Positions 3,326-52,319 of a DNA stretch of 64,000 bases are shown here, piece after piece. The notes beneath the pieces were generated by a model, which did not search any database, had not been told where the DNA came from, and was given only the letters and a program-made list of their open reading frames with translations. The position numbers were made by a program, and so were the translations under genes. This DNA comes from Candidatus Omnitrophota bacterium (GTDB lineage: Bacteria > Omnitrophota > Omnitrophia > Omnitrophales > Aquincolibacteriaceae). The stretch spans positions 82,149 to 146,148 of the forward strand of contig JBDRCT010000013.1 of assembly GCA_043821445.1 (NCBI GenBank), given 5' to 3'. Position 1 is the stretch's first letter, and each line of letters begins with the position of its first letter.

Positions 3326-3811
3326 TTAGAAGGGAATTTCTTCGTCGGGTTTAAGTTCGTCCTTTGAAAGGGAGACGGAATCCTTTTTGGAAGGCATGCC
3401 GCCCTCCGGGGCTTCAAAAATGCTTTCATCCACGTCCATGGTCGGCACATCCGCCCCCTCGCCCCTTCCGCTGCCGGGTTTTGATCCGAGGAACTGGACA
3501 TTGTCGGCGACCACTTCCGTGGAATACCGTTTATTACCATCCGGGCCGTCCCAACTCCGGGTCTGGATCCTTCCTTCCACAAAGACGGGACGGCCTTTTT
3601 TCAGATACTCATTACAGATCTCCGCAAGACGCGCCCAAACCACGATCCGGATAAAACAAACTTCCTCTTTTTTTTCCCCGGCCTTGGAATTATACGTGCG
3701 ATTCACAGCGATCGTAAAAGTCGTCACCGCCTGTCCCGAGGGGATGTAACGAAGCTCCGGATCCCGGGTAAGATTCCCGATCAACATGACTTTGTTCAAA
3801 CTTACGGCCAT
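3326..3811 (-). CDS. ssb: Single-stranded DNA-binding protein
   Basis: OB-fold N-terminus [14 protein letters not shown], Gly-rich linker, acidic tail ...DEEIPF. Confidence 0.9.
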
Positions 3812-3842: not shown

Positions 3843-4181
3843 TTATACTTTGGACGTTGTAACAGGAGCGGCGGGAAGAGGCGCTAACGCCGGCTTCTTC
3901 GCGGGAATACTCACCATATATCTCAAAAGGTTTTCTTGAAGCTCCAGTTCTTTACGGAAATCCTGCGTCCGGGACGGGTCCATTTCAAATTCAAAAACGA
4001 ACGTCCTGCCGTCCTTGTACTTGCGGATCATGTGACCGAGCGCCCTTTTCCCAAGATCGGTCTTCTGGATCACCTTCCCTTGGAATTTCTCGATCCATTT
4101 TACAACCTCCGCGGCAGGGTCTTTGTGCCCCTCTCCTGTGATCTCCGGCGGAAAAATAAATAAACCCTCGTATTTTTTCAT
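3843..4181 (-). CDS. rpsF: 30S ribosomal protein S6
   Basis: MKKYEGLFIF... S6 family; rpsF-ssb-rpsR-rplI order. Confidence 0.9.
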   Translation of the reverse strand: MKKYEGLFIFPPEITGEGHKDPAAEVVKWIEKFQGKVIQKTDLGKRALGHMIRKYKDGRTFVFEFEMDPSRTQDFRKELELQENLLRYMVSIPAKKPALAPLPAAPVTTSKV

Positions 4182-4430: not shown

Positions 4431-5033
4431 CTACACCACTGCGGCATTGACCCTGTTCATGGCCTTCGTCAAAGGCTCCGAGATCCAGGCGCGGCATGCC
4501 TCCATCCCTTTTCCCAGAAGCTCTTTCATTTTCTTCTCTTCTGCGACGGTGAAAGCGGAAAGCACATAATCCCGAAGCGGCCCGGCAGAGTCCGTAAGCT
4601 CTGCTCCTGCCTTATTTGCCCGGGAACCGATCCCGATCCGAAGCCTCGGATATTCACGGCCTTCGAGATGTTCTTCGATCGAGGCAAGCCCGTTATGCCC
4701 GCCCGAACTTCCCTCGCCTCGCAAACGGAACTTTCCGAACGGCAACGCGATATCATCGACCACGATCAAAAGATCTTTGTTTGCAGCGATTTTCCAGTAC
4801 TTTACGAGCGCCACGACCGCTTCGCCGGAAAGGTTCATATAGGTTAACGGATGGGCCAGATGAAACGTCTCGCCATTCCACGAGACTGAGGCTAAGGCCG
4901 CCTTCTGGGACTTTTTAAAAGCAAACTTCACTTTCTCTGTTTCGGCAATAAACTCCACGAGCCGGCGGCCGATGTTGTGCCTCGTGCGGGCGTATTCGTC
5001 CCCGGGATTCCCAAGCCCAACGATGAGTTTCAT
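4431..5033 (-). CDS. pth: Peptidyl-tRNA hydrolase
   Basis: Internal start MKLIVGLGNPGDEY; HNGL motif; ORF track entry extends further upstream into the rplY 3' region, unlikely. Confidence 0.85.
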   Translation of the reverse strand: MKLIVGLGNPGDEYARTRHNIGRRLVEFIAETEKVKFAFKKSQKAALASVSWNGETFHLAHPLTYMNLSGEAVVALVKYWKIAANKDLLIVVDDIALPFGKFRLRGEGSSGGHNGLASIEEHLEGREYPRLRIGIGSRANKAGAELTDSAGPLRDYVLSAFTVAEEKKMKELLGKGMEACRAWISEPLTKAMNRVNAAVV

Positions 5034-8135: not shown

Positions 8136-8176
8136 CCTTGTTTTAAATTTTATTTCTTTAATGGTTAACAAGAATT

Positions 8177-8220
8177 GTCCCAATTTCAGATTCTCTGAAA
8201 TTGATAAAAATTGGGACTAC
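8177..8220. repeat. Dispersed palindromic element, copy A: GTCCCAAT-ttcagattctctgaa-attgataaaa-ATTGGGAC-tac
   Basis: Terminal inverted repeats GTCCCAAT/ATTGGGAC, internal perfect hairpin; its terminal GTAG (minus strand) supplies the TAG stop of the upstream permease; see copies at 10925, 51291, 51374, 52236. Confidence 0.6.
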
Positions 8221-9173
8221 CCCTTGATCCCGGTCAATTTGATACCTTCGACGAAAAACCGCTGATTGAATAAAAAGACGATCAAGATCGGCAGGATCAT
8301 CATCATCGACGCGGCCATAAGAAGCGTCCAATCCGTACCGTGCACCCCTTGAAAATAAGCGAGTCCGACCGGCAGCGTATATTTGGTATGCGTGTTCACC
8401 ACGATCAAGGGCCACATCAAATTCATCCACGATCCCATGAATGTAAAAGTGGTCAAAGTCGCTAAGGCCGGTTTTGAAAGCGGAAGAATGATATGCCAGA
8501 AGATCCGGACATACGAGCATCCGTCGATCTTTGCGGCATCTTCCAGGTCTTTAGGCAGCGTCAAAAAAAACTGCCGCAGCATGAACGTCCCGTAAGCGGT
8601 AAAGATCCCCGGGAGGATCAGCGCTTTATAAGTGTCGATCCAGCCAAAATGACGGAGCAGGATGAATACCGGGATCATGGTCACCGCGCCCGGGATCATC
8701 ATGGTCGCGAGATAACTAAAAAAGAGCCTGTCGCGACCCGGAAAATTCAAACGCGCAAACGCGTACGCGGCCATCGCGCTTGTGGCAACCTGTCCGAACG
8801 TAATACAAAAGCTCACCAAAATGGAATTCAGATAGAACTGCGCAAACGGAACCACGGACCAGACCTTCACATAATTCTGCCAGACAAAACTAGTCGGCAA
8901 CCATTCCTGCCACCAGGAACGATTCTCCGAAAAAATTTGTCCCGCATCGGAAAGTGAAGTCGAGACCATCCAAAGGAACGGCGCCGCCATACTCACCGCG
9001 CCTGCGAGCAGGGCCATAAAAAGCACCGCTCTTTGTAATCTTCGCTTTAGGGGCGACTTTTCCTTGAGCTCAGTCACCACCTTCACCACTTTTTTTCTTT
9101 TTGAACGGGAGGCGGACGCGGCGATCTCCTGCTTCATTTCCTCTTGGATCAACGAATCAATGTGATGTCCCAT
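8217..9173 (-). CDS. Carbohydrate ABC transporter permease (MalG-like)
   Basis: 6 TM segments, EAA loop AKIDGCSYVRIFWHIILPLSKPAL. Confidence 0.8.
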   Translation of the reverse strand: MGHHIDSLIQEEMKQEIAASASRSKRKKVVKVVTELKEKSPLKRRLQRAVLFMALLAGAVSMAAPFLWMVSTSLSDAGQIFSENRSWWQEWLPTSFVWQNYVKVWSVVPFAQFYLNSILVSFCITFGQVATSAMAAYAFARLNFPGRDRLFFSYLATMMIPGAVTMIPVFILLRHFGWIDTYKALILPGIFTAYGTFMLRQFFLTLPKDLEDAAKIDGCSYVRIFWHIILPLSKPALATLTTFTFMGSWMNLMWPLIVVNTHTKYTLPVGLAYFQGVHGTDWTLLMAASMMMILPILIVFLFNQRFFVEGIKLTGIKG

Positions 9174-9182
9174 GACTCTCTC

Positions 9183-10119
9183 TTAAGCGTAATGAACAGC
9201 CTTGCCAAAAAAACGCCATTTCACGACCGTGACAGCAAAAATGATCAGGAATAGGACCCATGAAATGGCGGCCGCGTATCCCATACGGTACCATTCAAAC
9301 GCGTTATTAAAGATGTAATAGATGATCGTCGTGGTGGACCCGTTTGGCCCGCCACCCGTCATGATATACGCTTGATCGAATCCCGCCTGAAACCCGCCGA
9401 TTAAGCTCATTGTCGCGATAAAAAAAGTCGTCGACGAGATCTGCGGCCAGGTGACATTCCAGAATTTTTGCCAATTGTTCGCGCCGTCCACTTCTGCGGC
9501 ATCATAAAGATCGCGCGGCACTCCCTGCAACGCCGCTAGATAAAGGATCATATTGTAGCCACCGATCGATTGCCACACGCTCATGATGATAAAAGCCGGC
9601 TTCGCCCACGCTTCGTCCGTAAGCCAGTTCGGTCCGGTCAACCGCAAACCCAGTATATCCCCGAACTGAGCGATCATTGAATTTAAGAAACCGAAATTCG
9701 GATTGTAGATCAACCGCCAGAGCATAAAGATCGCAACGCCCGAACAGATCGTCGGGAGAAAATAAATAGTCCTGAAAATGACCGTTCCCCGGAGCTTTTG
9801 GTTGAGAGCGATCGCCAAAAGGAGCGACCCCGCCATGCTGATTGGAATGGCCGTCATTAGAACGAGCGTGTTCCAACAGTACTTCCCGAAGAACGGATCT
9901 TTGGTTAACTCGATAAAGTTCGTGAGTCCTGCGAATTGCGGACTAGCCGATAAAAGATCCCACTTCACGAAACTTAAGCCCAAGGACGCCAGCACCGGGA
10001 TCGATGTGAATAGAAGGAACCCGAGCAGATTCGGCATAAGAAACCCATACGCCGCGATCGTCTCTTTCGTTTTATCTTTCAATCCGTTTTTCATTTTTAT
10101 TTTCCTGATGTCCCGCATT
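9183..10119 (-). CDS. Carbohydrate ABC transporter permease (MalF-like)
   Basis: EAA loop AAEVDGANNWQKFWNVTWPQIS; track ORF (to 10190) reads through the tRNA, so real start is the internal ATG (MRDIRK..., ~10119) or MKNGLK (~10095). Confidence 0.8.
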
Positions 10120-10454: not shown

Positions 10455-10530
10455 CCGCCTGGAAATCTTTGATTTCCAGGACGGATCCGTCCTCAGGCCT
10501 TTGCCTGAGGCGGACACGGGGCAATAACTT
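10455..10530 (-). repeat. Duplicated tRNA-Gln 5' end (TGCCCCGTG + 7-nt flank) followed by three hairpins with AAAG/GAT loops; 5' leader of the GIY-YIG gene
   Basis: 16-nt direct repeat cacggggcaataactt at 10189-10204 and 10515-10530; minus strand reads TGCCCCGTG-tccg-CCTCAGGC-AAAG-GCCTGAGG-ACGGATCCGTCC-TGGAAATC-AAAG-ATTTCCAGG-cGGAGTGAAATtATG, i.e. tRNA-like GTGAAAT resumes just before the GIY-YIG ATG. Confidence 0.55.
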
Positions 10531-10856: not shown

Positions 10857-10924
10857 TTCCCAACCTCATAATCTTATGTACTATCCTGACTTTTATTTTC
10901 TTCTCATCAACGGCAGTCGGGATT

Positions 10925-10968
10925 GCCCCAATTTCCGCTTCGCTTCAATTGATAAGTATTGGGACTAC
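10925..10968. repeat. Dispersed palindromic element, copy B: GCCCCAAT-ttccgcttcgcttcaa-ttgataagt-ATTGGGAC-tac
   Basis: Same architecture as copy A; terminal GTAG on minus strand is the TAG stop of ispE. Confidence 0.6.
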
Positions 10969-11840
10969 AATGAGTGACAAATCACCTTGCGAAAAGGAAA
11001 GGGAACTTCTTTCAATCTCTTCGATAGGTCTAAAGCTTCTTTCCGGCTGGAGAACGCTGCGAAGACCGTAGCCCCGCTTCCGCTCATAAGAACGAAGGGA
11101 GCTCCCAGGCCTTTGAGAACCGCCACGGCTTTGGGAATGGACGGCATCAGACGAAATGCCGGGATTTCCAGATCATTCCGCGCAAGCGTCGCCGCTTCCC
11201 AGATCCACTTTTTATTAAGAAAAGAGCGCAGAATTCTAGCAATACGCCTTTCCTTTGTCAAGGAGAGGGGCCGCCCGCCCCAGGAGAGCATTTGGTAGAC
11301 TTTTTTCGTAGGAAGTCCCTGATCCGCCACAAGCAAAAGGAACTCGAGGCGGGTACCCAACGGCGCTTTTTGGAGCCTATCCCCGATGCCCCAAGCCATG
11401 GCTTGCCGCGTGTTCGAAAGAAAGAACGGCACATCCGCACCGAGCTTTTCCCCTATAGAGAAAAGCTCCTTGCGGGAGATCTTGAGCCGGAAAAGTTTTT
11501 TCATGCCTAGTAAGAAGGAAGCCGCGTTGCTAGAGCCACCTCCAAGCCCGGCACCTAGAGGAATACGCTTGGTGAGCCGCACGGAAACTCCTCCCAACCC
11601 TTGGAATTTCCCTTGAAGCGCCCGGTAGGCCTTGGTGATGAGATTGCCTTCCCCGGTTTTGAGAGCGGAAATGTTCGTGGTAAGTTTAAAGCCCCCGGAG
11701 TTTTTTCGAATGACAAGGGTATCTGCAAGCGAGATGCGGTGGAAAAGCGTCAAAAGTTCATGATACCCGTCCGGTCGCTTACCGAGAATACGCAGATGAA
11801 GATTGAGTTTTGCGGGACTTCTAACAGTAAGGTTATTCAT
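10965..11840 (-). CDS. ispE: 4-diphosphocytidyl-2-C-methyl-D-erythritol kinase IspE
   Basis: GHMP kinase; AKLNLHLRILGKRPDGYHEL, IPLGAGLGGGSSNAA. Confidence 0.85.
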   Translation of the reverse strand: MNNLTVRSPAKLNLHLRILGKRPDGYHELLTLFHRISLADTLVIRKNSGGFKLTTNISALKTGEGNLITKAYRALQGKFQGLGGVSVRLTKRIPLGAGLGGGSSNAASFLLGMKKLFRLKISRKELFSIGEKLGADVPFFLSNTRQAMAWGIGDRLQKAPLGTRLEFLLLVADQGLPTKKVYQMLSWGGRPLSLTKERRIARILRSFLNKKWIWEAATLARNDLEIPAFRLMPSIPKAVAVLKGLGAPFVLMSGSGATVFAAFSSRKEALDLSKRLKEVPFPFRKVICHSL

Positions 11841-12995: not shown

Positions 12996-13004
12996 AGAGG
13001 GCGG

Positions 13005-14674: not shown

Positions 14675-16177
14675 CTAACTCGCGAGTTTTTTCTGGAGGA
14701 TTTCATTGACGATCTTCGGATTCGCTTTCCCCTGCGTCTCTTTCATCACCGCGCCGACAAGAGCGCCGAGGGCCTTTTGTTTCCCGGTCTTGAACTCCGC
14801 GACCGCGGCGGGGTTCGCGGCGATGGCCTTCTCGACCGCCTTCTCGATCAACCCCGTGTCCGAGACTTGCGTAAGGCCTTTTTCTTTGACGATCGCTTCC
14901 GCGGCCTTGCCGGTCGCCGCCATCTCCTGAAGTACGTCCTTGGCAGTCTTTCCGCTCAAGGTCCCCTGTTCGACAAGACGGATCAGCCCTGCAAGCGCGT
15001 GCGGTGAGACGGAGCAATCCTCGATCGCAATATTTTTCGCGTTCAAGAGGGCGAGAAGCTCGTTCTGAACCCAGTTGCTCGCGAGTTTAGCGGGGGCCCC
15101 TTCGCGAACACAGGACTCAAAATATCCCGCGAGTTTCTTCTCCTGCACCAGCACATAGGCGTCATATTCCGGAATGCCGAATTCCCTGATGAACCGCTTC
15201 GCGCGTTCAAGCGGCAACTCGGGCAAAGTCTTGCGGACCTCTTCGACGGTCTCGCGGGTGAGCGTGAACGGGACAAGATCCGGCTCCGGGAAATAGCGGT
15301 AATCATGGGCTTCTTCTTTGGAGCGCATGGAAAACGTCGTGCCTTTGGCATCATTCCAAAGCCGCGTTTCCTGGACGATCGTTTCCCCGTTCTTGAGCGC
15401 TTCGGTCTGCCGCTCAATTTCATACTGAATGGCTTTTTGCACCATCTTAAAAGAATTCAGGTTCTTGATCTCGACCTTGGTGCCTAATTTTTCCTGGCTC
15501 ACGGGCCGCACCGACACGTTCGCGTCACAGCGAAGGCTCCCCTTTTCCATATCACAGTCGCTCACTTCCAGATATTGAAGAATAGCCTTTAGCGCGGTGA
15601 GGTAATCGTAAGCCTCCTGCGGGCTCCCGAGGTCCGGCTCGGAAACGATCTCAAGAAGCGGAATGCCGCCCCGGTTATAATCCACCAGGCTCCCGTCCGC
15701 AATGCCTTCATGAAGGAGTTTTCCCGCGTCCTCTTCCAGATGCGCGCGTGTGATGCCGATCCGTTTTAAGACCACGGACGACAGACCACAGTCTACAGCC
15801 CCTGCTTTTTCCTTTTTTGCTGCGGTCTTCGGTCTGCAGTCTGCAGTCTGGGTTTCGATATCGACGAAACCTTTACCGTTCACCGGCATGTCAAATTGCG
15901 AGATCTGGTAGGCCTTGGGAAGGTCCGGATAAAAATAATTCTTCCGGTCGAATTTGAGCCGCTCCGCCACCTTGCAATTGAGCGCAAGCCCGACCCGTAT
16001 CGCAAGCTTCAAGGCCGCTTCGTTTAGGACCGGCAACGATCCCGGCCAGCCAAGACACACCGGACACGTATGCTTGTTCCCCTCCGCTCCAAACTCCGTG
16101 GAGCATGAGCAGAAGAGCTTCGACTTCGTTTTCAGTTGTACGTGGACCTCAAGCCCAATGACGGGTTCGTAGTTCAT
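14675..16177 (-). CDS. gatB: Asp/Glu-tRNA amidotransferase subunit B
   Basis: MNYEPVIGLEVHVQLKTKSKLFCSC...; full-length GatB with a ~25-aa palindromic in-frame insert (15781-15860); ATG has no SD. Confidence 0.9.
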   Translation of the reverse strand: MNYEPVIGLEVHVQLKTKSKLFCSCSTEFGAEGNKHTCPVCLGWPGSLPVLNEAALKLAIRVGLALNCKVAERLKFDRKNYFYPDLPKAYQISQFDMPVNGKGFVDIETQTADCRPKTAAKKEKAGAVDCGLSSVVLKRIGITRAHLEEDAGKLLHEGIADGSLVDYNRGGIPLLEIVSEPDLGSPQEAYDYLTALKAILQYLEVSDCDMEKGSLRCDANVSVRPVSQEKLGTKVEIKNLNSFKMVQKAIQYEIERQTEALKNGETIVQETRLWNDAKGTTFSMRSKEEAHDYRYFPEPDLVPFTLTRETVEEVRKTLPELPLERAKRFIREFGIPEYDAYVLVQEKKLAGYFESCVREGAPAKLASNWVQNELLALLNAKNIAIEDCSVSPHALAGLIRLVEQGTLSGKTAKDVLQEMAATGKAAEAIVKEKGLTQVSDTGLIEKAVEKAIAANPAAVAEFKTGKQKALGALVGAVMKETQGKANPKIVNEILQKKLAS

Positions 16178-16293
16178 AAACTAGTACGGGGTACGGAGTA
16201 CGGCGTCTCGCGTTCTTTTTTCATGTGCGCCGCACACCTTCCGCCTCTCGCAGTTTTCCGGACTTCAAGTCCAATGACCGGTTCGCAATTCAT
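16174..16293 (-). CDS. 39-codon bridging ORF whose first 11 codons are a diverged duplicate of the gatB start (MNCEPVIGLEV...)
   Basis: ATG overlaps the TGA of the 341-aa ORF (ATGA) and its TGA overlaps the gatB ATG (ATGA); 28/33 nt identical to gatB 5' end, 4 of 5 substitutions synonymous. Confidence 0.4.
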   Translation of the reverse strand: MNCEPVIGLEVRKTARGGRCAAHMKKERETPYSVPRTSL

Positions 16294-17315
16294 ATTTTTT
16301 CACCATCAACCAGCAACTTCTTCTTTGAAGATTTCCCTCTTTTCTTTGACATTTCCAGAAGCCACTGATCAACATACTTGATTAAACTGCAACCAGCCCT
16401 TGCCACCTCGTTAAAATATCGCGTTGTTTGGATATGACTGATAGTTAGTTTTGTTCCCACTTTGAGTCTTGTCTTGTTTTTGTCCTTATATTCAGAGTCG
16501 ATAATACCGCCCCGATGAGCAATTAAATGCCGAATGCTTTCCATTCTTTTTAAAACAGTCCCATCTTGAAATGCTGTATTCAGGAAGTCTTCATCGCTCT
16601 TAGAGCCTATCCTAATAGCCTTGTAAGCTTTTCTCATACCCTTCAAGCTCGTAAAATCAAACTTCTCGGACAGCAATGCTCCCAAGTATTTCTTGATATT
16701 AAAATCATACTTTGATAGAAGCCCAACGCTAAACCCCTTCTTTGTAATCTTGTCTTCATCCTCATCTTTATCTGTTGCGCCCAACACCTTTTCAACCAAC
16801 AGAGTTGGGTTAGCATTAACCATTAAAATCCAGGCGTCTTTCACCAGCGATTCGAACGCTACCCAACTATTCATCACGCCAGATAAATACAGCGCTCGTA
16901 TCGCTGTTTTAAGCTTTTGATCTTTTTTGATTTTTTGATCTAGGCTACGAAAAGCCGCATCGATCACATCTTCCTTTGTAAAACCTTTTTGTTTTTGAAT
17001 TTTTTCGATTTCTTCTTTTAAGAAACTATTATTTTGCTCCTCAGAATCTTTGTTTCTTCTTGGAAAACTGCGTACCTCAGCTAACGTTTGTATTGCGAAA
17101 TGTTGAATTTCATAAGATGCTAGCGTAGAAAAATGCAGGGGCAGCATTTCCAGACTTAAGACATCTTCTAAGTTAACTGAGAAAGCCTTAGCAGCCCCGC
17201 GCAAAGCTTTTGATTGAATGCCGGCAACAACAGCTTCAATTTCATCGCTAACAATTTCTGTTTTCCTTCCTATAGACAAATAATGTCTCCGCACCACGCT
17301 TTGTGCTTTCTCCAT
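16290..17315 (-). CDS. Hypothetical 341-aa protein, AT-rich; possible HEPN-type (Rx4H) nuclease domain
   Basis: Motif MESIRHLIAHRGG (R-[NH]-x3-H as in Abi_2/RiboL-PSP HEPN families) near the C-terminal third; Lys/Glu-rich, much lower GC than flanks. Confidence 0.5.
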   Translation of the reverse strand: MEKAQSVVRRHYLSIGRKTEIVSDEIEAVVAGIQSKALRGAAKAFSVNLEDVLSLEMLPLHFSTLASYEIQHFAIQTLAEVRSFPRRNKDSEEQNNSFLKEEIEKIQKQKGFTKEDVIDAAFRSLDQKIKKDQKLKTAIRALYLSGVMNSWVAFESLVKDAWILMVNANPTLLVEKVLGATDKDEDEDKITKKGFSVGLLSKYDFNIKKYLGALLSEKFDFTSLKGMRKAYKAIRIGSKSDEDFLNTAFQDGTVLKRMESIRHLIAHRGGIIDSEYKDKNKTRLKVGTKLTISHIQTTRYFNEVARAGCSLIKYVDQWLLEMSKKRGKSSKKKLLVDGEKI

Positions 17316-17640
17316 ATTTTTTATGCCCCCATAAAAGTATGTATAAAGTAGGTGTCCTCCGCCATAAAACTTTGGCGGACAAGTGCAGCTGGACGCCCTA
17401 TAAAGTAGGCGTCCTACAACTGAACACCCTACGTATTTTCTTCCAATATTTCCGTCGACGGAAATATTGGCCGGTCACTTCGATTCATCGGACGTCCGAT
17501 AAATCTACCGAACGCCCAATTCTCAATTTTTCCGCATGCGGAAAAATCTGCCGAGACCCTCAACCCTTCAATTTTCCCGCATGCGGGAAAATCTGCTGCT
17601 TATCCCAATTTCCCCACATGCGGGGAAATCGTTCTGCACC
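17316..17640. repeat. Array of different perfect palindromes (28, 14, 20, 22, 20 nt) and CCCAATT + hairpin modules upstream of the 341-aa ORF
   Basis: ccaatatttccgtcgacggaaatattgg (17443-17470), atcggacgtccgat (17487-17500), tttttccgcatgcggaaaaa (17527-17546), attttcccgcatgcgggaaaat (17571-17592), tttccccacatgcggggaaa (17609-17628); direct repeat tataaagtaggYgtcct at 17342 and 17399. Confidence 0.65.
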
Positions 17641-17644
17641 TCAG

Positions 17645-17851
17645 CTATAAGCTATGGCCTTTGCCGTACTTCGCGTCTTCTTCACGGACAAGGTCGAATG
17701 CCTTGGCCGCGGCGTCAAACCGGTCGGAAAAATCGATCCGCTCCTCCCTCATCTTCGCCATCAGAAGCTCGTGATACTTGGTCCGGAGGGCATGGACCTT
17801 TTCCTTGGCGTGCGGCTCTTCCTCAGATATCTCCCGCTCCGCCTTGACCAA
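17645..17851 (-). CDS. Small hypothetical ORF (68 aa) inside the island
   Basis: ORF only; helical, charged; no recognizable motif. Confidence 0.3.
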   Translation of the reverse strand: MVKAEREISEEEPHAKEKVHALRTKYHELLMAKMREERIDFSDRFDAAAKAFDLVREEDAKYGKGHSL

Positions 17852-17883
17852 ATCTGTATAAATTCTTGCGATCTCAAGAACCG

Positions 17884-18114
17884 TTATAGCTCACCATGTG
17901 CGATCCGTATGGCGATCCGGGTCGCATGCTCTCTGTCCTTGTACTTGATCCCCTGTTTCTTGAGCAATTCAATGAATTTCCAGCGCAGGTCGATCTGCTT
18001 CTCCTCGAGAACCTGTAATTCCTCGGGGTTTGTCGTTTTTTCGATCTTTTCGATCACTTCAACATATTTTTTGGCTACGAGATACAGGTTATTCGTCATT
18101 ACTTCAGTCTCCAT
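17884..18114 (-). CDS. Small hypothetical ORF (~76 aa from METEV...) inside the island
   Basis: Ends ...KDREHATRIAIRIAHGEL (an Rx6H-G tail); start trimmed to METEV because the track start overlaps repeat cluster B. Confidence 0.35.
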   Translation of the reverse strand: METEVMTNNLYLVAKKYVEVIEKIEKTTNPEELQVLEEKQIDLRWKFIELLKKQGIKYKDREHATRIAIRIAHGEL

Positions 18115-18120
18115 GTAAAA

Positions 18121-18262
18121 ACGGACGTCCTGCAACAGAACAATTCATTCCCAATTGTTCGGCATGCCTTCCTAACCCTTCGATTTTGCCGCATGCGGCA
18201 AAATTCATTCCCAATTTCCTGGCCCGCCGGGCAATTCATCCGCTTGACAAAGGAATTAGCGG
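18121..18262. repeat. Second array of CCCAATT + palindrome modules between the RhuM-Fic gene and the small ORFs
   Basis: ggacgtcc, caattcattcccaatt-gttcGGCATGCC, attttgccgcatgcggcaaaat (22-nt perfect palindrome, 18183-18204), aaattcattcccaatt-tcctGGCCCGCCGGGC. Confidence 0.65.
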
Positions 18263-18266
18263 CCTA

Positions 18267-19241
18267 TCAGCCTAACAAATTCAAGATCACTTTAGTCATG
18301 ACATCTTTTTCGGATGCTTTGCTGGCCGCGACCATCAAGGTCAATGCCACAAGGGCATTGTCATCGATCCGCCGAGTTCCATCCTTACACAAGAGAATGC
18401 CATTTCTCTGCAGAAAACAGACGAACAACGCCGCAGCGATCCGCTTATTCCCGTCCACAAAGCTGTGGTTCTTGGTCACGAAGTACAAAAGATGCGCGGC
18501 TTTTTCCTCGACTGTCGGATACACGTCCTTGCCGCCGAAGGTCTGATAAACAGCTCCGATGGAACTTCGGAAACCAGCGTCCTTTTCCCTGCCCACGAGC
18601 GCCGAATCATGAAACTTCTTTTTCATGGTCTCGATGATCTTTCGGGCTTCTTCATAAGTCAGTTCGAATCTGGCTTTTTTTGTCCCCTTGGGTTTTGAGA
18701 GCTTTTCGTGGTCAAAATCGTCGAGGATGTCCAACGCACGGGAATACTCCGTAATTACCTGGGCGATCCCTGCCGCTTCTGGAGCCAAGCCTTCGACCGC
18801 CGCGACATTCCCGATAAGAGCTATCGCCTTTCGAAGTTCCAGGTATTTGCCTTGAGCCGCCCGTAACCTCTTTTCGTTAAGGGTATATCCCTCGATCAAA
18901 TGCTTTTTCAGCACCTGAGTGGCCCAAATCCGGAATTGCGTTCCCCTCTTGGAATTGACCCGATAACCAACGGAAATGATCATATCGAGGTTATAAAATG
19001 TTACGGGTTTATCGGAGTTAGCAATGTGCATTTTTTGCACATTGCTTTTTTGCTCTAATTCCCCCGTATTGAATATGTTATGAATATGCTTCGTAATAAC
19101 ACTCCGTTCTATTTCGAAAAGTTCGGACATTTGTTTTTGCGTAAGCCAAACAGTGTCCTTATCAAGACGGACCTCAAATCGATCCTTATAGAGGATGACC
19201 TCTCCGCCCTTTACTTCGTTATTATTTTCAAGGCCGCTCAT
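18267..19241 (-). CDS. RhuM-family N-terminal domain fused to Fic/Doc (death-on-curing type) domain
   Basis: N-term VWLTQKQMSELF...FYNLDMIISVGYRVNSKRGTQFRIWATQ (RhuM); C-term HSFVDGNKRIAAALF (Fic/Doc HxFx[DN]GNKR motif); ATG overlaps gatA TGA. Confidence 0.8.
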   Translation of the reverse strand: MSGLENNNEVKGGEVILYKDRFEVRLDKDTVWLTQKQMSELFEIERSVITKHIHNIFNTGELEQKSNVQKMHIANSDKPVTFYNLDMIISVGYRVNSKRGTQFRIWATQVLKKHLIEGYTLNEKRLRAAQGKYLELRKAIALIGNVAAVEGLAPEAAGIAQVITEYSRALDILDDFDHEKLSKPKGTKKARFELTYEEARKIIETMKKKFHDSALVGREKDAGFRSSIGAVYQTFGGKDVYPTVEEKAAHLLYFVTKNHSFVDGNKRIAAALFVCFLQRNGILLCKDGTRRIDDNALVALTLMVAASKASEKDVMTKVILNLLG

Positions 19242-20698
19242 AATTGAGGCTTCCGCTTGTAAAATTCCGTTTCCTGCTCAAAGGCGTGGGCGGCGCGGAG
19301 CATGGTGGATTCGTCGAACGGACGGGCCATGAGCTGCATGCCGATGGGAAGACCGCCGCTTGTGAATCCGCACGGGACCGACATCGCCGGAATTCCCGCC
19401 AGGTTCGCCGGGATCGTAAAAATATCAGACAAGTACATCGCAATCGGGTCCGCGGCCTTCTCACCGATCTTGAACGCCGCGGTGGGCGACGTAGGCGAAA
19501 GGATCACATCCACTTCTTTAAACGCCTTTTCGAAATCTTGGCGGATGAGCGTGCGGACCTTCTGCCCTTTCAGGTAATACGCTTCGTAATAACCGGCCGA
19601 GAGGACAAAGGTGCCGAGCAGAATGCGGCGTTTCGCCTCCTGTCCGAACCCACGGTCGCGTGTCTCAAAATACATCTCGCGAAGATCTTTCGCATGGACC
19701 CTCAAACCGTATTCCACGCCGTCAAAGCGGCCGAGGTTTGAACTCGCCTCCGCCACGGCGACAATATAGTAAACAGCGACCGAATACTCCGTGTGCGGAA
19801 GACTGATCGTCCTGATCTCGGCGCCGAGCTTCTTATAGATCTCCGCGGCCTGGTGCACGCTTTTTTCGATCTGAGGATCGATCCCCGCGATGAAATATTC
19901 TTTCGGGAGACCGATCTTAAGACCCTTCACATTGCGCGTGAGCGCCTGCGTAAAATCCGGAACGTTCTCGGGCGAAGAAGTGGAATCCTTCGGATCATGA
20001 CCGCACAGGATATTCATCAGAATGGCCGCATCTTCCACGGTTTTGGTGAGAGGACCGATCTGGTCAAAGCTGGAGCCGAATGCGATAAGCCCGTAGCGCG
20101 ACACGCGTCCGTAGGTGGGTTTCACGCCGACCACGCCGCAAAGTGCCGCGGGTTGACGGATCGAACCGCCGGTATCGGACCCCAAAGCCGCAACCGTCAT
20201 GTCCGCCGCGACTGAAGCCGCCGAGCCGCCGCTGGAGCCGCCCGGCACGCGCTCCAGGTCCCAGGGATTCCGGCACGGACCGAACGCGGAAGTCTCACAG
20301 GAGGAACCGAACGCGAATTCATCCATGTTGCACTGCCCGAAAAGCGTCGCGCCCGCATTTTTAAGTTTCGTGATCACGGTCGCATCGTAGGGGGGCACGT
20401 GCTTCGCCAGGATCTTCGACGCGCAGGTCACTTCCCTGCCATCAATGCAAATGTTGTCCTTGATGGAGATGGGAACGCCGTAAAGCGGCCCTTTACCAAT
20501 CACCCTGCGTGTCGCACTGCGTAAGTCTGATTCATCACCGTTATCCAGTGCAATGGGATGATCCGAGCGTAGAAACGCATTTATTTTCGGATTCAGGGCT
20601 TTGACGCGTTTTTCGAAAGCTTTAAGAATGGTCGGCGGGCCGACTTGTTTAGAGATCCCGATCGCTTCTTTGAGAGTCAGAGAACAGAGGTCGGTCAT
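19238..20698 (-). CDS. gatA: Glutamyl-tRNA(Gln) amidotransferase subunit A
   Basis: Amidase signature GGSSGGSAASVAA, 486 aa. Confidence 0.9.
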   Translation of the reverse strand: MTDLCSLTLKEAIGISKQVGPPTILKAFEKRVKALNPKINAFLRSDHPIALDNGDESDLRSATRRVIGKGPLYGVPISIKDNICIDGREVTCASKILAKHVPPYDATVITKLKNAGATLFGQCNMDEFAFGSSCETSAFGPCRNPWDLERVPGGSSGGSAASVAADMTVAALGSDTGGSIRQPAALCGVVGVKPTYGRVSRYGLIAFGSSFDQIGPLTKTVEDAAILMNILCGHDPKDSTSSPENVPDFTQALTRNVKGLKIGLPKEYFIAGIDPQIEKSVHQAAEIYKKLGAEIRTISLPHTEYSVAVYYIVAVAEASSNLGRFDGVEYGLRVHAKDLREMYFETRDRGFGQEAKRRILLGTFVLSAGYYEAYYLKGQKVRTLIRQDFEKAFKEVDVILSPTSPTAAFKIGEKAADPIAMYLSDIFTIPANLAGIPAMSVPCGFTSGGLPIGMQLMARPFDESTMLRAAHAFEQETEFYKRKPQL

Positions 20699-51290: not shown

Positions 51291-51600
51291 CTAGTCCCAA
51301 TACTTATCAATTTCATCCTTAATGAAATTAGGGCAATCCTTGTCACCCTTTGGTAAAAAATCCAAGACAAGGATAGTCCCAATACCTATCAATTTCAATG
51401 AAGTTGAAATTGGGGCCGTCCTGACTACCATTCGGAAAAAGAAAATAAAAGTCAGGACCGTCCTTGTCCCAACCCTGTAAAAAACTTAAAGGTGGTTGGG
51501 ACTATACTGATTACCATTAATTTTGGATAAAAATCAGTATGCCGACCATTTGAGAAAAAATCCGAGGCAAGGATAGCACGAAGACGGGGGCGAACAAAAA
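51291..51600. repeat. Dense cluster of the GTCCCAAT...ATTGGG palindromic elements (copies D 51291-51337, E 51374-51416, degenerate copies) plus nested inverted/direct repeats
   Basis: ctaGTCCCAATacttatcaa-tttcatccttaatgaaa-ttagggcaat; atAGTCCCAATacctatcaa-tttcaatgaagttgaaa-ttggggc; GTCCCAA..23 nt..TTGGGAC (51466-51502); direct repeat aaaaaatccRagRcaaggatag at 51355 and 51555. Confidence 0.55.
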
Positions 51601-52057: not shown

Positions 52058-52235
52058 TTTAAGATTCTCCTTTTCTCATTCAAACCCATTCGTTCCATCC
52101 CTAGGTATCGACCATTTTATGTCTTTTTTAATTTTTTTTGAACACTCTTCTTCAGCGCCGTTCTCCAATTAATTTGATGGGTTAACGGTACAGCCCAAGT
52201 CTCTTGTTTCATTTCCAGAAGGGTCGACTTGGACA

Positions 52236-52279
52236 GCCCCAATTTCCGCTATGCGGAAATGGATAAGTATTGGGACTGC
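52236..52279. repeat. Dispersed palindromic element, copy C: GCCCCAAT-ttccgctatgcggaaa-tggataagt-ATTGGGAC-tgc
   Basis: Internal hairpin ttccgc-tat-gcggaa is nearly the same module as the island arrays (ttccgcatgcggaa). Confidence 0.55.
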
Positions 52280-52319
52280 ACTGCGAACCATATGATATGA
52301 AATCAACAGTAACGCAGTG

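Follow-up and report, generated by a model that had tools for sequence, protein, structure and literature searches.

Two arrays of short palindromes, at positions 17316-17640 (array 1) and 18121-18262 (array 2), were analysed in a 64-kb stretch of a Candidatus Omnitrophota metagenome-assembled genome (MAG), hereafter the window, where they sit in a variable, defence-type slot within the gatCAB operon. The analyses have largely shown that the arrays are tandem, co-oriented, non-coding copies of one hairpin module, and that this module is a conserved, hypervariable, in-frame coding palindrome in a loop of the DUF1016_N domain, with an N13 version residing in a mobile element of ~85 nucleotides (nt). 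The module appears to be a preserved nucleic-acid hairpin in a nuclease gene family of many bacterial phyla, and it is best read as a hairpin-forming cis element that maintains itself and belongs to passenger genes of defence islands, here in a non-coding tandem form.

Structure of the array units

The units were read on the minus strand, which is the sense strand of the genes, and they follow a common plan, (R)ATT-N16-AAT(T/C)G, where N16 is a perfect or nearly perfect palindrome with a GC-rich core and a sequence specific to the unit. All units are co-oriented and are followed on the minus strand by a G-rich linker (GGRRATG or GAAGGGTTGRGG...TCGGCA), whose repeated parts are 7-22 nt long. 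The inner length was exactly 16 nt in all 16 tabulated array units from the window and from the related loci L012, L021 and L022, imperfect palindromes included, and the flanks (R)ATT...AAT(T/C)G were present in 24 of 24 units from arrays and genes. What stays constant is the AATT/GATT...AATT flank, its two sides exactly 16 nt apart, rather than the CCCAATT that a preliminary description of this DNA had placed before most units: CCCAATT occurs 11 times in the window, compared to 14.8 expected, and directly precedes only some units, although 4 of these 11 do fall in the arrays. The fixed N16 geometry, like the gatCAB hot-spot context and the DUF1016_N occurrence presented below, is an addition to that description.

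The finding is real and not a product of chance. Palindromes scoring at least 9 numbered 14 in the window, compared to 2.7 ± 1.4 in Markov simulations, and five of these 14 fall in the 947 nt that hold the arrays; the palindromes described earlier are present at the positions given. A strict census, which asked for ATT-N16-AAT and seven or more of the 8 inner pairs, returned five units in the window, all within the two arrays and each with a different stem, where ~0.1 would be expected in the 323 kb examined. Three palindromes of 22 nt (17526-17547, 17571-17592, and 18183-18204) read ATTTT-N-CCGCATGCGG-N'-AAAAT, with N/N' being T/A, C/G, and G/C, respectively; that is, the sixth position varies complementarily. 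Across the 24 units, 254 of 288 stem cells were Watson-Crick pairs, compared to 156 ± 9 after shuffling of the right arms, a figure that describes the family and is no proof, because the units had been chosen as palindromes. Stem positions 2-8 each showed two to five pair types.

Folding of array 1 gave -94.6 kcal/mol (z -8.6 versus shuffles) for the sense strand and -68.5 kcal/mol (z -6.0) for the antisense strand. Array 2 was much weaker and has a single strong hairpin. The array units are non-coding, with a stop codon within few codons in the unit frame, and no minus-strand open reading frame (ORF) of at least 50 amino acids (aa) was found across the arrays. On either strand a T-run precedes the stem and an A-run follows it, which is the wrong polarity for an intrinsic terminator, and a terminator scan called none of the units. 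A CRISPR (clustered regularly interspaced short palindromic repeats) array was also rejected, there being no constant repeat of CRISPR length and the variable 16-mers being self-complementary. Among Rfam covariance models only one tRNA exceeded the gathering score in the window, the best match in 16100-19300 having E = 1.2, and a plasmid blastn search with the arrays returned no match.

Positions, strands and sequence features of the array units, the neighbouring genes and the dispersed element copies in the window
Feature	Position	Strand	Description
U1, array 1	17606-17630	-	GATT-TCCCCGCATGTGGGGA-AATTG; N16; single central mismatch (17607-17629)
U2, array 1	17569-17593	-	GATT-TTCCCGCATGCGGGAA-AATTG; 17571-17592 perfect 22-nt palindrome
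U3, array 1	17524-17548	-	GATT-TTTCCGCATGCGGAAA-AATTG; 17526-17547 perfect, 22 nt
U4, array 1	17482-17505	-	GATT-TATCGGACGTCCGATG-AATC; 24 nt, 1 mismatch
U5, array 1	17443-17470	-	perfect 28-nt palindrome CCAATATTTCCGTCGACGGAAATATTGG
ORF341-proximal part of array 1	17319-17414	-	looped inverted repeats 17319-17336, 17358-17379, 17391-17414
V1, array 2	18213-18236	-	AATT-GCCCGGCGGGCCAGGA-AATT; imperfect palindrome, core GCCCG-G-CGGGC
V2, array 2	18183-18204	-	perfect 22-nt palindrome ATTTTGCCGCATGCGGCAAAAT
Degenerate part of array 2	18122-18168	-	GGCATGCC (18161-18168), linker AATTGGGAATGAATT, CGGACGTCC (18122-18130)
RhuM/Fic-Doc gene	18267-19241	-	PADLOC candidate PDC-S23, E = 4e-129; own in-frame palindrome 19020-19046
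71-aa gene, conserved	17884-18099	-	model: three-helix bundle, predicted local distance difference test (pLDDT) 94
~80-aa gene, partner of 71-aa gene	17645-17887	-	ORF called from TTG at 17851
ORF341, variable cargo gene 3' of array 1	16290-17315	-	no Pfam domain; RHLIAH (Rx4H) motif
Degenerate copy of gatB 5' end, 34 nt	16260-16293	-	29/34 nt match
Dispersed copy A	8172-8224	+	CAATT-N13-AATTG
Further dispersed copy	10884-10972	+	
Further dispersed copy	52219-52283	+	
Further dispersed copy	51293-51351	-	
Further dispersed copy	51375-51457	-	

The part of array 1 next to ORF341 contains two copies of GGAC(R)CCTACTTTATA, and its motifs are common to the spacers of L012 and, inverted, to L029, a distant Omnitrophota genome. 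When 17385-17425 was compared to L012, a small hairpin (GGACGCC-TACTTTATAG-GGCGTCC) looked inserted into GTGTCCAGTTGCACTTGTCC, with CAGTTG/CAGCTG on either side, and may be the footprint of a hairpin insertion or of template switching. In array 2, V1 is homologous to the L012 unit GAATTCATCGGCGGGCCGATGAATTC and includes a short palindrome, GCCCG-C-CGGGC, at 18222-18232, while the degenerate part lies directly upstream of the 71-aa gene.

The module in DUF1016_N-SNase genes of Omnitrophota

When species-representative genomes were scanned for the exact pattern ATTTTNCCGCATGCGGNAAAAT, eight matches were obtained, with no array among them, and a viral scan gave none. Three matches were in Omnitrophota, all three within coding sequence, and two of these are orthologous sites in a DUF1016_N-SNase gene, with N/N' being C/G and G/C. 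A palindrome search of related loci revealed quite different stems at the same site in L029, L031, L035, and L038; L054 and L057 contributed two further cases. The palindrome encodes P-I-x5-[KEQ]-L, immediately before an L-[ST]-W motif.

Covariation was tested on an ungapped alignment of seven Omnitrophota orthologues. In the intragenic module 95.6% of cells were paired, compared to at most 51% in slid controls, and both-sided (compensatory) changes were present in 6 of 13 stem pairs; the covariation score was 0.564 compared to 0.212 ± 0.048, and none of 500 shuffles reached it. The loop is hypervariable, with 94 distinct variants in 110 family proteins, and 56 of the 94 loop peptides could be encoded by a perfect 26-nt palindrome at that exact register, compared to 6% when halves were recombined and 5% when residues were permuted. 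The earlier statement that dyad symmetry is kept while the stem changes thus holds within the arrays, in the homologous arrays of relatives, and at the orthologous intragenic site. Modules and covariation were found in other genomes, and the case considered in the preliminary description, palindromes unique to this locus with no covariation elsewhere, does not apply.

The array units share with the DUF1016_N coding palindrome the flanks and the self-complementary N16, and not its in-frame position. Single units resemble in-gene palindromes of other genomes closely: U1 is almost identical to that of L057, the 25-nt string of U2 is identical to that of the L005 DUF1016_N-SNase gene, U4 matches that of L054 at 23 of 25 nt, and V2 is identical to that of L009, while 24 nt of U3 recur in frame within the thymidylate kinase gene tmk of L010, at 476-497. 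For U2, U3, and V2 the identity to segments inside genes of other genomes extends over 22-25 nt. Random perfect palindromes of the same column composition were, however, as near to the family loops as the real units (mean distance 1.77 versus 1.81), and the matches therefore require no exchange; arrays and genes share one restricted sequence space, and a donor relationship is not supported beyond composition. In L010, which is another Omnitrophota MAG, the tmk palindrome encodes the peptide RFFRMRKN and adds no length compared to other Tmk proteins.

In L035 and L038 the DUF1016_N-SNase gene takes the position that array 1 has in the window, immediately 3' of the ~80-aa gene and co-oriented with it, and the pair of small genes (71 and ~80 aa) is physically linked to the nuclease gene in L029, L031, L035, and L038. 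By tblastn, no trace of this gene was detected around the arrays, and it is absent from the window. The Omnitrophota DUF1016_N-SNase proteins have signal-peptide-like N-termini.

Homologous arrays and the dispersed element

Arrays were found at the same junctions in L012 (five near-identical loci), L021, and L022, where the order of units is kept and the stems differ (GAATTCGTCCGGCGCCGGACGAATT versus CATTTGTGCGGCGCCGCACGAATT; GATTCATCGGACGTCCGAAGAATC versus GATTTATCGGACGTCCGATGAATC). This order is conserved across genomes whose GatA proteins are ~15% different. The arrays of L012, L021, and L022 end in GGCGGTTCGGG and a TATA-rich palindrome resembling an extended -10 element, and the next gene begins 50-130 nt past it. 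Comparison of L022 with L023 revealed that the entire array block is an insertion in L022, and other relatives have one hairpin or none after the ~80-aa gene. A further repeat, AGAC every 7 nt, was noted upstream of the 71-aa gene and in spacers (L012 5655-5700, L016 4965-5000, and L022 3965-4000; for example, CAGACTG AAGACGA CAGACAA TAGACAA CAGACTG GAGACTA), of which the window has one or two copies only.

The dispersed element is a two-hairpin unit of ~85 nt with five copies in the window, and it was also detected by nhmmer in L010 and L012/L013. It carries CAATT-N13-AATTG, and the link to the arrays that had been drawn from its copy C holds. In L012 an 84-nt element (9755-9840) sits precisely at the boundary of the upstream region and the hisG ATG, and it is absent at the corresponding window position (12996-13000); the element was therefore gained or lost between relatives. 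No clear target-site duplication accompanies this insertion.

Beside dispersed copy B, between two co-directional minus-strand genes, three chained and overlapping hairpins occupy 10458-10510 (CCTGGAAATC..GATTTCCAGG, AGGACGGATCCGTCCT, and CCTCAGGC..GCCTGAGG). In L029, a sequence related to the dispersed element (GGGGACAC..AATTCGGAATT..GTGTCCCC) occurs twice as a direct repeat, at 3745-3800 and 4488-4540, on either side of the 71-aa/80-aa pair.

DUF1016 and RhuM palindromes in other phyla

The yhcG gene (DUF1016) of E. coli K-12 contains four tandem in-frame palindromes in the same loop, three of which have the form (R)ATT-N19-AAT(T/C). This block (L058 13116-13237; nt 289-410 of the gene) is single copy per genome, and natural alleles differ: strain NJS001 lacks 78 nt, which is two units, and in strain EC42405 the first unit is perfect. 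Of 12 yhcG matches listed from a spread of the 3,945 matching records, five covered less than the full query. The site is also palindromic in DUF1016 genes of Citrobacter, Persicobacter (Bacteroidota), and Nostoc (a cyanobacterium) and weakly so in Singulisphaera, while Burkholderia DUF1016 has tandem peptide units. An inner length of 16 nt (N16) applies to the Omnitrophota modules, and one of 19 nt (N19) to those of all other phyla sampled. In a P. aeruginosa plasmid the DUF1016 site, AATTCTCGTATCACTGATACGAGAATT, is a perfect 27-nt palindrome that relies on codons rare in that species (ATT, GTA, TCA, ATA, CGA, and TTG), and this shows that nucleotide-level selection overrides codon choice at the palindrome.

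A second in-frame palindrome occurs in RhuM. That of the window (19020-19046) reads AGCAATGTGCA-AAAAA-TGCACATTGCT on the sense strand. The RhuM gene of a B. fragilis plasmid has the exact reverse complement, which amounts to a flipped 5-nt loop (QKM versus HFL in the protein), and that of a P. aeruginosa plasmid has the same arms as the window palindrome, while L012 has a different palindrome at the same codon (3999-4023). The palindrome thus occupies one codon position across phyla (window, L012, L062, and L063). A literature search on palindromes in Omnitrophota, DUF1016, yhcG or RhuM returned nothing relevant, and the link of palindromic repeats to a cross-phylum coding palindrome in defence-island genes is unexpected and apparently undescribed.

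Genomic context

Context analyses confirmed that the arrays lie between ORFs of an inserted region, as had been described. They are flanked by gatA (19238-20698) and gatB (14675-16177), with tsaD further downstream (Pfam), and the order on the minus strand, which carries all genes between gatA and gatB, is gatA, RhuM/Fic, array 2, 71-aa gene, ~80-aa gene, array 1, ORF341, and gatB. Among relatives the conserved slot consists of gatC, gatA, an optional RhuM/Fic gene, the 71-aa and ~80-aa genes, variable cargo, and gatB, and the cargo includes HEPN_AbiU2, Fic/Doc, DUF2971, and RhuM/Fic genes. According to a previous study (PMC9881135), DUF1016 and RhuM genes are enriched beside restriction-modification loci.

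Homologues of the 71-aa protein (n = 116; identity 56-100%) all come from Omnitrophota where the source is named; a viral scan with this protein gave no match, and a fold search with the model returned no significant or informative match and no DNA-binding fold. In relatives the TGA stop of the 71-aa gene overlaps the ATG of the ~80-aa gene (ATGA). A single G>A at 17884-17887 of the window gives TAA and ATA, and the start codon of the ~80-aa gene is lost; the ORF was called from TTG because of this replacement, and it may start at a non-canonical codon or may not be translated at all. Genomes at a greater distance have the pair beside a DUF1016_N-SNase gene or between sufB and sufC (L026/L027; L027 4001-4437). 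Since it was found there rather than between gatA and gatB, the pair appears to be mobile into essential operons.

A Candidatus Omnitrophota MAG encodes a protein 100% identical to that of ORF341, for which only two other homologues exist, both distant (P0002 and P0003) and both without an array; separate exact-sequence look-ups of the ORF341 and GatB proteins gave no match. ORF341 is possibly a HEPN protein, a call that depends on the Rx4H motif and a weak match (E = 0.08), since the AlphaFold model (pLDDT 37) was unusable. The degenerate gatB start copy and the stop codon of ORF341 overlap as ATGA. Remnants of the gatB 5' end, of 25 codons, are also present in L022 (5848-5922) and L036 (5110-5184); in the three loci the remnants span the first 11-25 codons and lie upstream of the true gatB, which suggests repeated insertion or recombination at the gatA/gatB junction. 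In L022, as in the window, the remnant overlaps the stop codon of the final cargo gene as ATGA.

Interpretation and alternative explanations

Taken together, the data are consistent with one hairpin module that is self-maintained by template switching and selection and that would act in cis on the operon transcript. We consider this combined statement quite possible, if somewhat short of probable, its identity part being much firmer than its functional part. A change in one arm would be copied to the other by intrastrand template switching, and the palindromes could thereby drift yet remain perfect; such switching would therefore explain both the symmetry through the very centre and the flipped RhuM loop. 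Paired arm changes, loop flips, and gain and loss of units have all been shown. Selection for a stem-loop of the sense strand would add to template switching and keep the geometry. A preference for the sense strand is seen in the folding of array 1 (z -8.6 versus -6.0) and in the mismatches within stems, where G-T outnumber A-C on that strand (12 versus 3). A stem-loop RNA signal was among the roles raised in the preliminary description, and it is the possible one that we favour: in the read-through operon transcript the array stem-loops would stand between the upstream genes and the downstream cargo gene and would work in cis as hairpins for processing, stabilisation or insulation; in relatives that cargo gene has a promoter-like element of its own. 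Since the stem-loops would not terminate transcription, gatB could still be expressed.

Several observations weigh against this interpretation. The 24 units of the family statistics are subject to ascertainment, as stated above. Array 2 as a whole is no more structured than shuffles (z +0.3), and the excess of G-T over A-C mismatches comes partly from homologous units, whose counts are not independent. The dispersed copies of the window occur in both orientations relative to their neighbour genes, and the window lacks the promoter-like TATA palindrome of the relatives. An RNA-level role is something that we purely infer from the sequence, and the symmetry through the centre points to a process at the DNA level, because neither an RNA hairpin nor a protein reading the flanks would need it. 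No trans-acting factor was identified, the 71-aa protein being without an informative fold match.

A wider proposal is that (R)ATT-palindrome-AATTG and the RhuM hairpin are together an ancient cis element of operon-embedded passenger defence genes (DUF1016/YhcG and RhuM/Fic), of which the Omnitrophota arrays would be the free-standing, amplifiable form; as a joint statement this is doubtful. Such an element might be a palindrome-driven local hypermutation device for a specificity loop, or an expression switch read by a host or phage factor.

The hairpins could instead be structure-specific, attC-like recombination sites for the swapping of cargo in the gatA-gatB slot. This would fit the placement of the arrays exactly at junctions of conserved and variable genes, the different cargo of close relatives, the structure kept with free sequence as in attC, the gatB 5' remnants of the window, L022, and L036 as signs of repeated insertion beside gatB, and the array block that is an indel between L022 and L023. 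We regard it as unlikely, however: neither an integrase nor a HUH gene was found in the slot of the window or in related loci, nor did the island ORFs, or the gatA-gatB slot where it was read in related loci, show a recombinase domain; RYYYAAC/GTTRRRY cores and extrahelical bases are absent, three to five units occur per junction instead of one, and the same module resides in coding genes that are no cassette borders. Nor is it likely that the arrays are non-functional relics of the loop of a decayed DUF1016_N-family gene, surviving through template switching alone. The nuclease gene does occupy the position of array 1 in L035 and L038, tandem in-gene units exist in E. coli and Burkholderia, and the array units fall in the sequence space of the gene loops, but tblastn detected no other trace of the nuclease gene around the arrays, N16 is strictly kept in 16 of 16 tabulated units, and the locus has two paralogous arrays whose unit order is kept across ~15% GatA divergence, a long time for neutral relics.

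That the units serve as ectopic templates that rewrite the DUF1016_N loop through microhomology of the AATT flanks seems very unlikely to us. Units and gene segment do have the same length (N16) and the same flanks, several units are identical or nearly so to gene segments of other genomes, the 94 loop variants in 110 proteins show how variable the target is, and the small-gene pair is linked to the nuclease gene in L029, L031, L035, and L038. Random palindromes were nevertheless equally close to the loops (1.77 versus 1.81), the window has no nuclease gene, and flanks of 4-6 nt fall short of what ordinary recombination requires. The preliminary description had also suggested recognition hairpins for a Y1/HUH (RAYT/IS200-like) enzyme, which would make the units repeats of the repetitive extragenic palindrome (REP) or bacterial interspersed mosaic element (BIME) type, served by a REP-associated tyrosine transposase (RAYT). 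Extragenic palindromes clustered between co-directional genes and a related dispersed element with presence/absence polymorphism agree with this idea; against it, tblastn with approximate query sequences gave no Y1/RAYT match in the 64 kb of the MAG and ~45 related loci, the units have neither a GTAG head nor alternating orientation, they are all different rather than near-identical copies, and the 64 kb contains the strict module nowhere but in the arrays, so that we hold this role to be highly improbable. Slightly less probable still is the operator or decoy array also put forward earlier, here for a dimeric DNA-binding protein, for which the 71-aa/80-aa pair or a DUF1016_N domain could stand. 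Dyads that are perfect through the centre and have AT-rich arms, AATT flanks at constant spacing, and the small-gene pair that the arrays always adjoin are what such an array would show, yet the cores differ within one array (GCATGC, GACGTC, GTCGAC, and GGCGGGCC), a protein reading the flanks only would need no inner symmetry, no DNA-binding fold matched the 71-aa model, and the Omnitrophota DUF1016_N-SNase proteins begin with what looks like a signal peptide.

If functional, the self-maintaining hairpin module would define a class of cis element recognised by geometry and self-complementarity and not by sequence, and present both in non-coding arrays and in the coding sequences of a gene family that is very common in defence islands. 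For the intragenic case E. coli K-12 offers a direct test: its yhcG has three to four tandem units, and natural alleles differ by two. The analysis also exposes a conserved slot for variable defence cargo inside the essential gatCAB operon of Omnitrophota, which bears on the ways in which small bacteria that depend on a host carry genes for immunity.

Comparison with known systems

The arrays share with the REP/BIME of Enterobacteria and Pseudomonas the tandem clusters of palindromes in transcribed intergenic regions of operons, the defined linkers, the stem-loops that are no terminators, and a dispersed relative in the same genome. They differ from them in having no GTAG/CTAC head, in being co-oriented, in that every stem is different, and in the fixed inner length of 16 nt, the central symmetry, and the presence of the module in frame inside genes.

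The Rickettsia palindromic elements, described as protein-coding palindromes (Ogata et al., 2000, 2002, as cited in PMC4316617), are likewise palindromic DNA in frame within genes that are not destroyed by it, and they also occur in intergenic regions. Those elements are insertions of 100-150 nt in many genes of one genus, whereas the module described here is 24-27 nt long, replaces a loop and adds residues only in E. coli and Burkholderia, and is found in different phyla at a single conserved codon position within a single domain family.

Integron attC sites, including clusters of attC sites lacking integron integrases (CALIN), resemble the arrays in that structure is conserved with free sequence, in bordering variable cassettes, and in that each site is different. 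The array units are without R''/R' cores or extrahelical bases, are much shorter, and occur several per junction with no integrase. As integron attC sites they were rejected, being palindromes of 24-28 nt compared to 57-141 nt and having no core sites; the sole GTTAGGC falls in the stop region of the RhuM/Fic gene, and L012 does not conserve it.

The ToxI repeats of type III toxin-antitoxin systems are similar in being tandem structured units, here directly upstream of a possible ribonuclease-type toxin (ORF341, Rx4H). ToxI repeats are near-identical, whereas the units here all differ and also precede unrelated cargo. A type III antitoxin array with ORF341 as the toxin was rejected for the differing units and for the homologues P0002 and P0003, which are without arrays.

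Quasipalindromes are hot spots of template switching that turns imperfect palindromes into perfect ones, introduces both members of a paired change at once and inverts loops, as in E. coli quasipalindrome mutagenesis and chloroplast hairpin inversions. Perfecting, paired changes, and loop flips were all seen here. Mutation at those hot spots takes place at arbitrary sites, whereas here one specific, phylogenetically deep site and its fixed geometry are kept up. By analogy, the arrays would work most like REP/BIME, and the in-gene form most like the protein-coding palindromes of Rickettsia.

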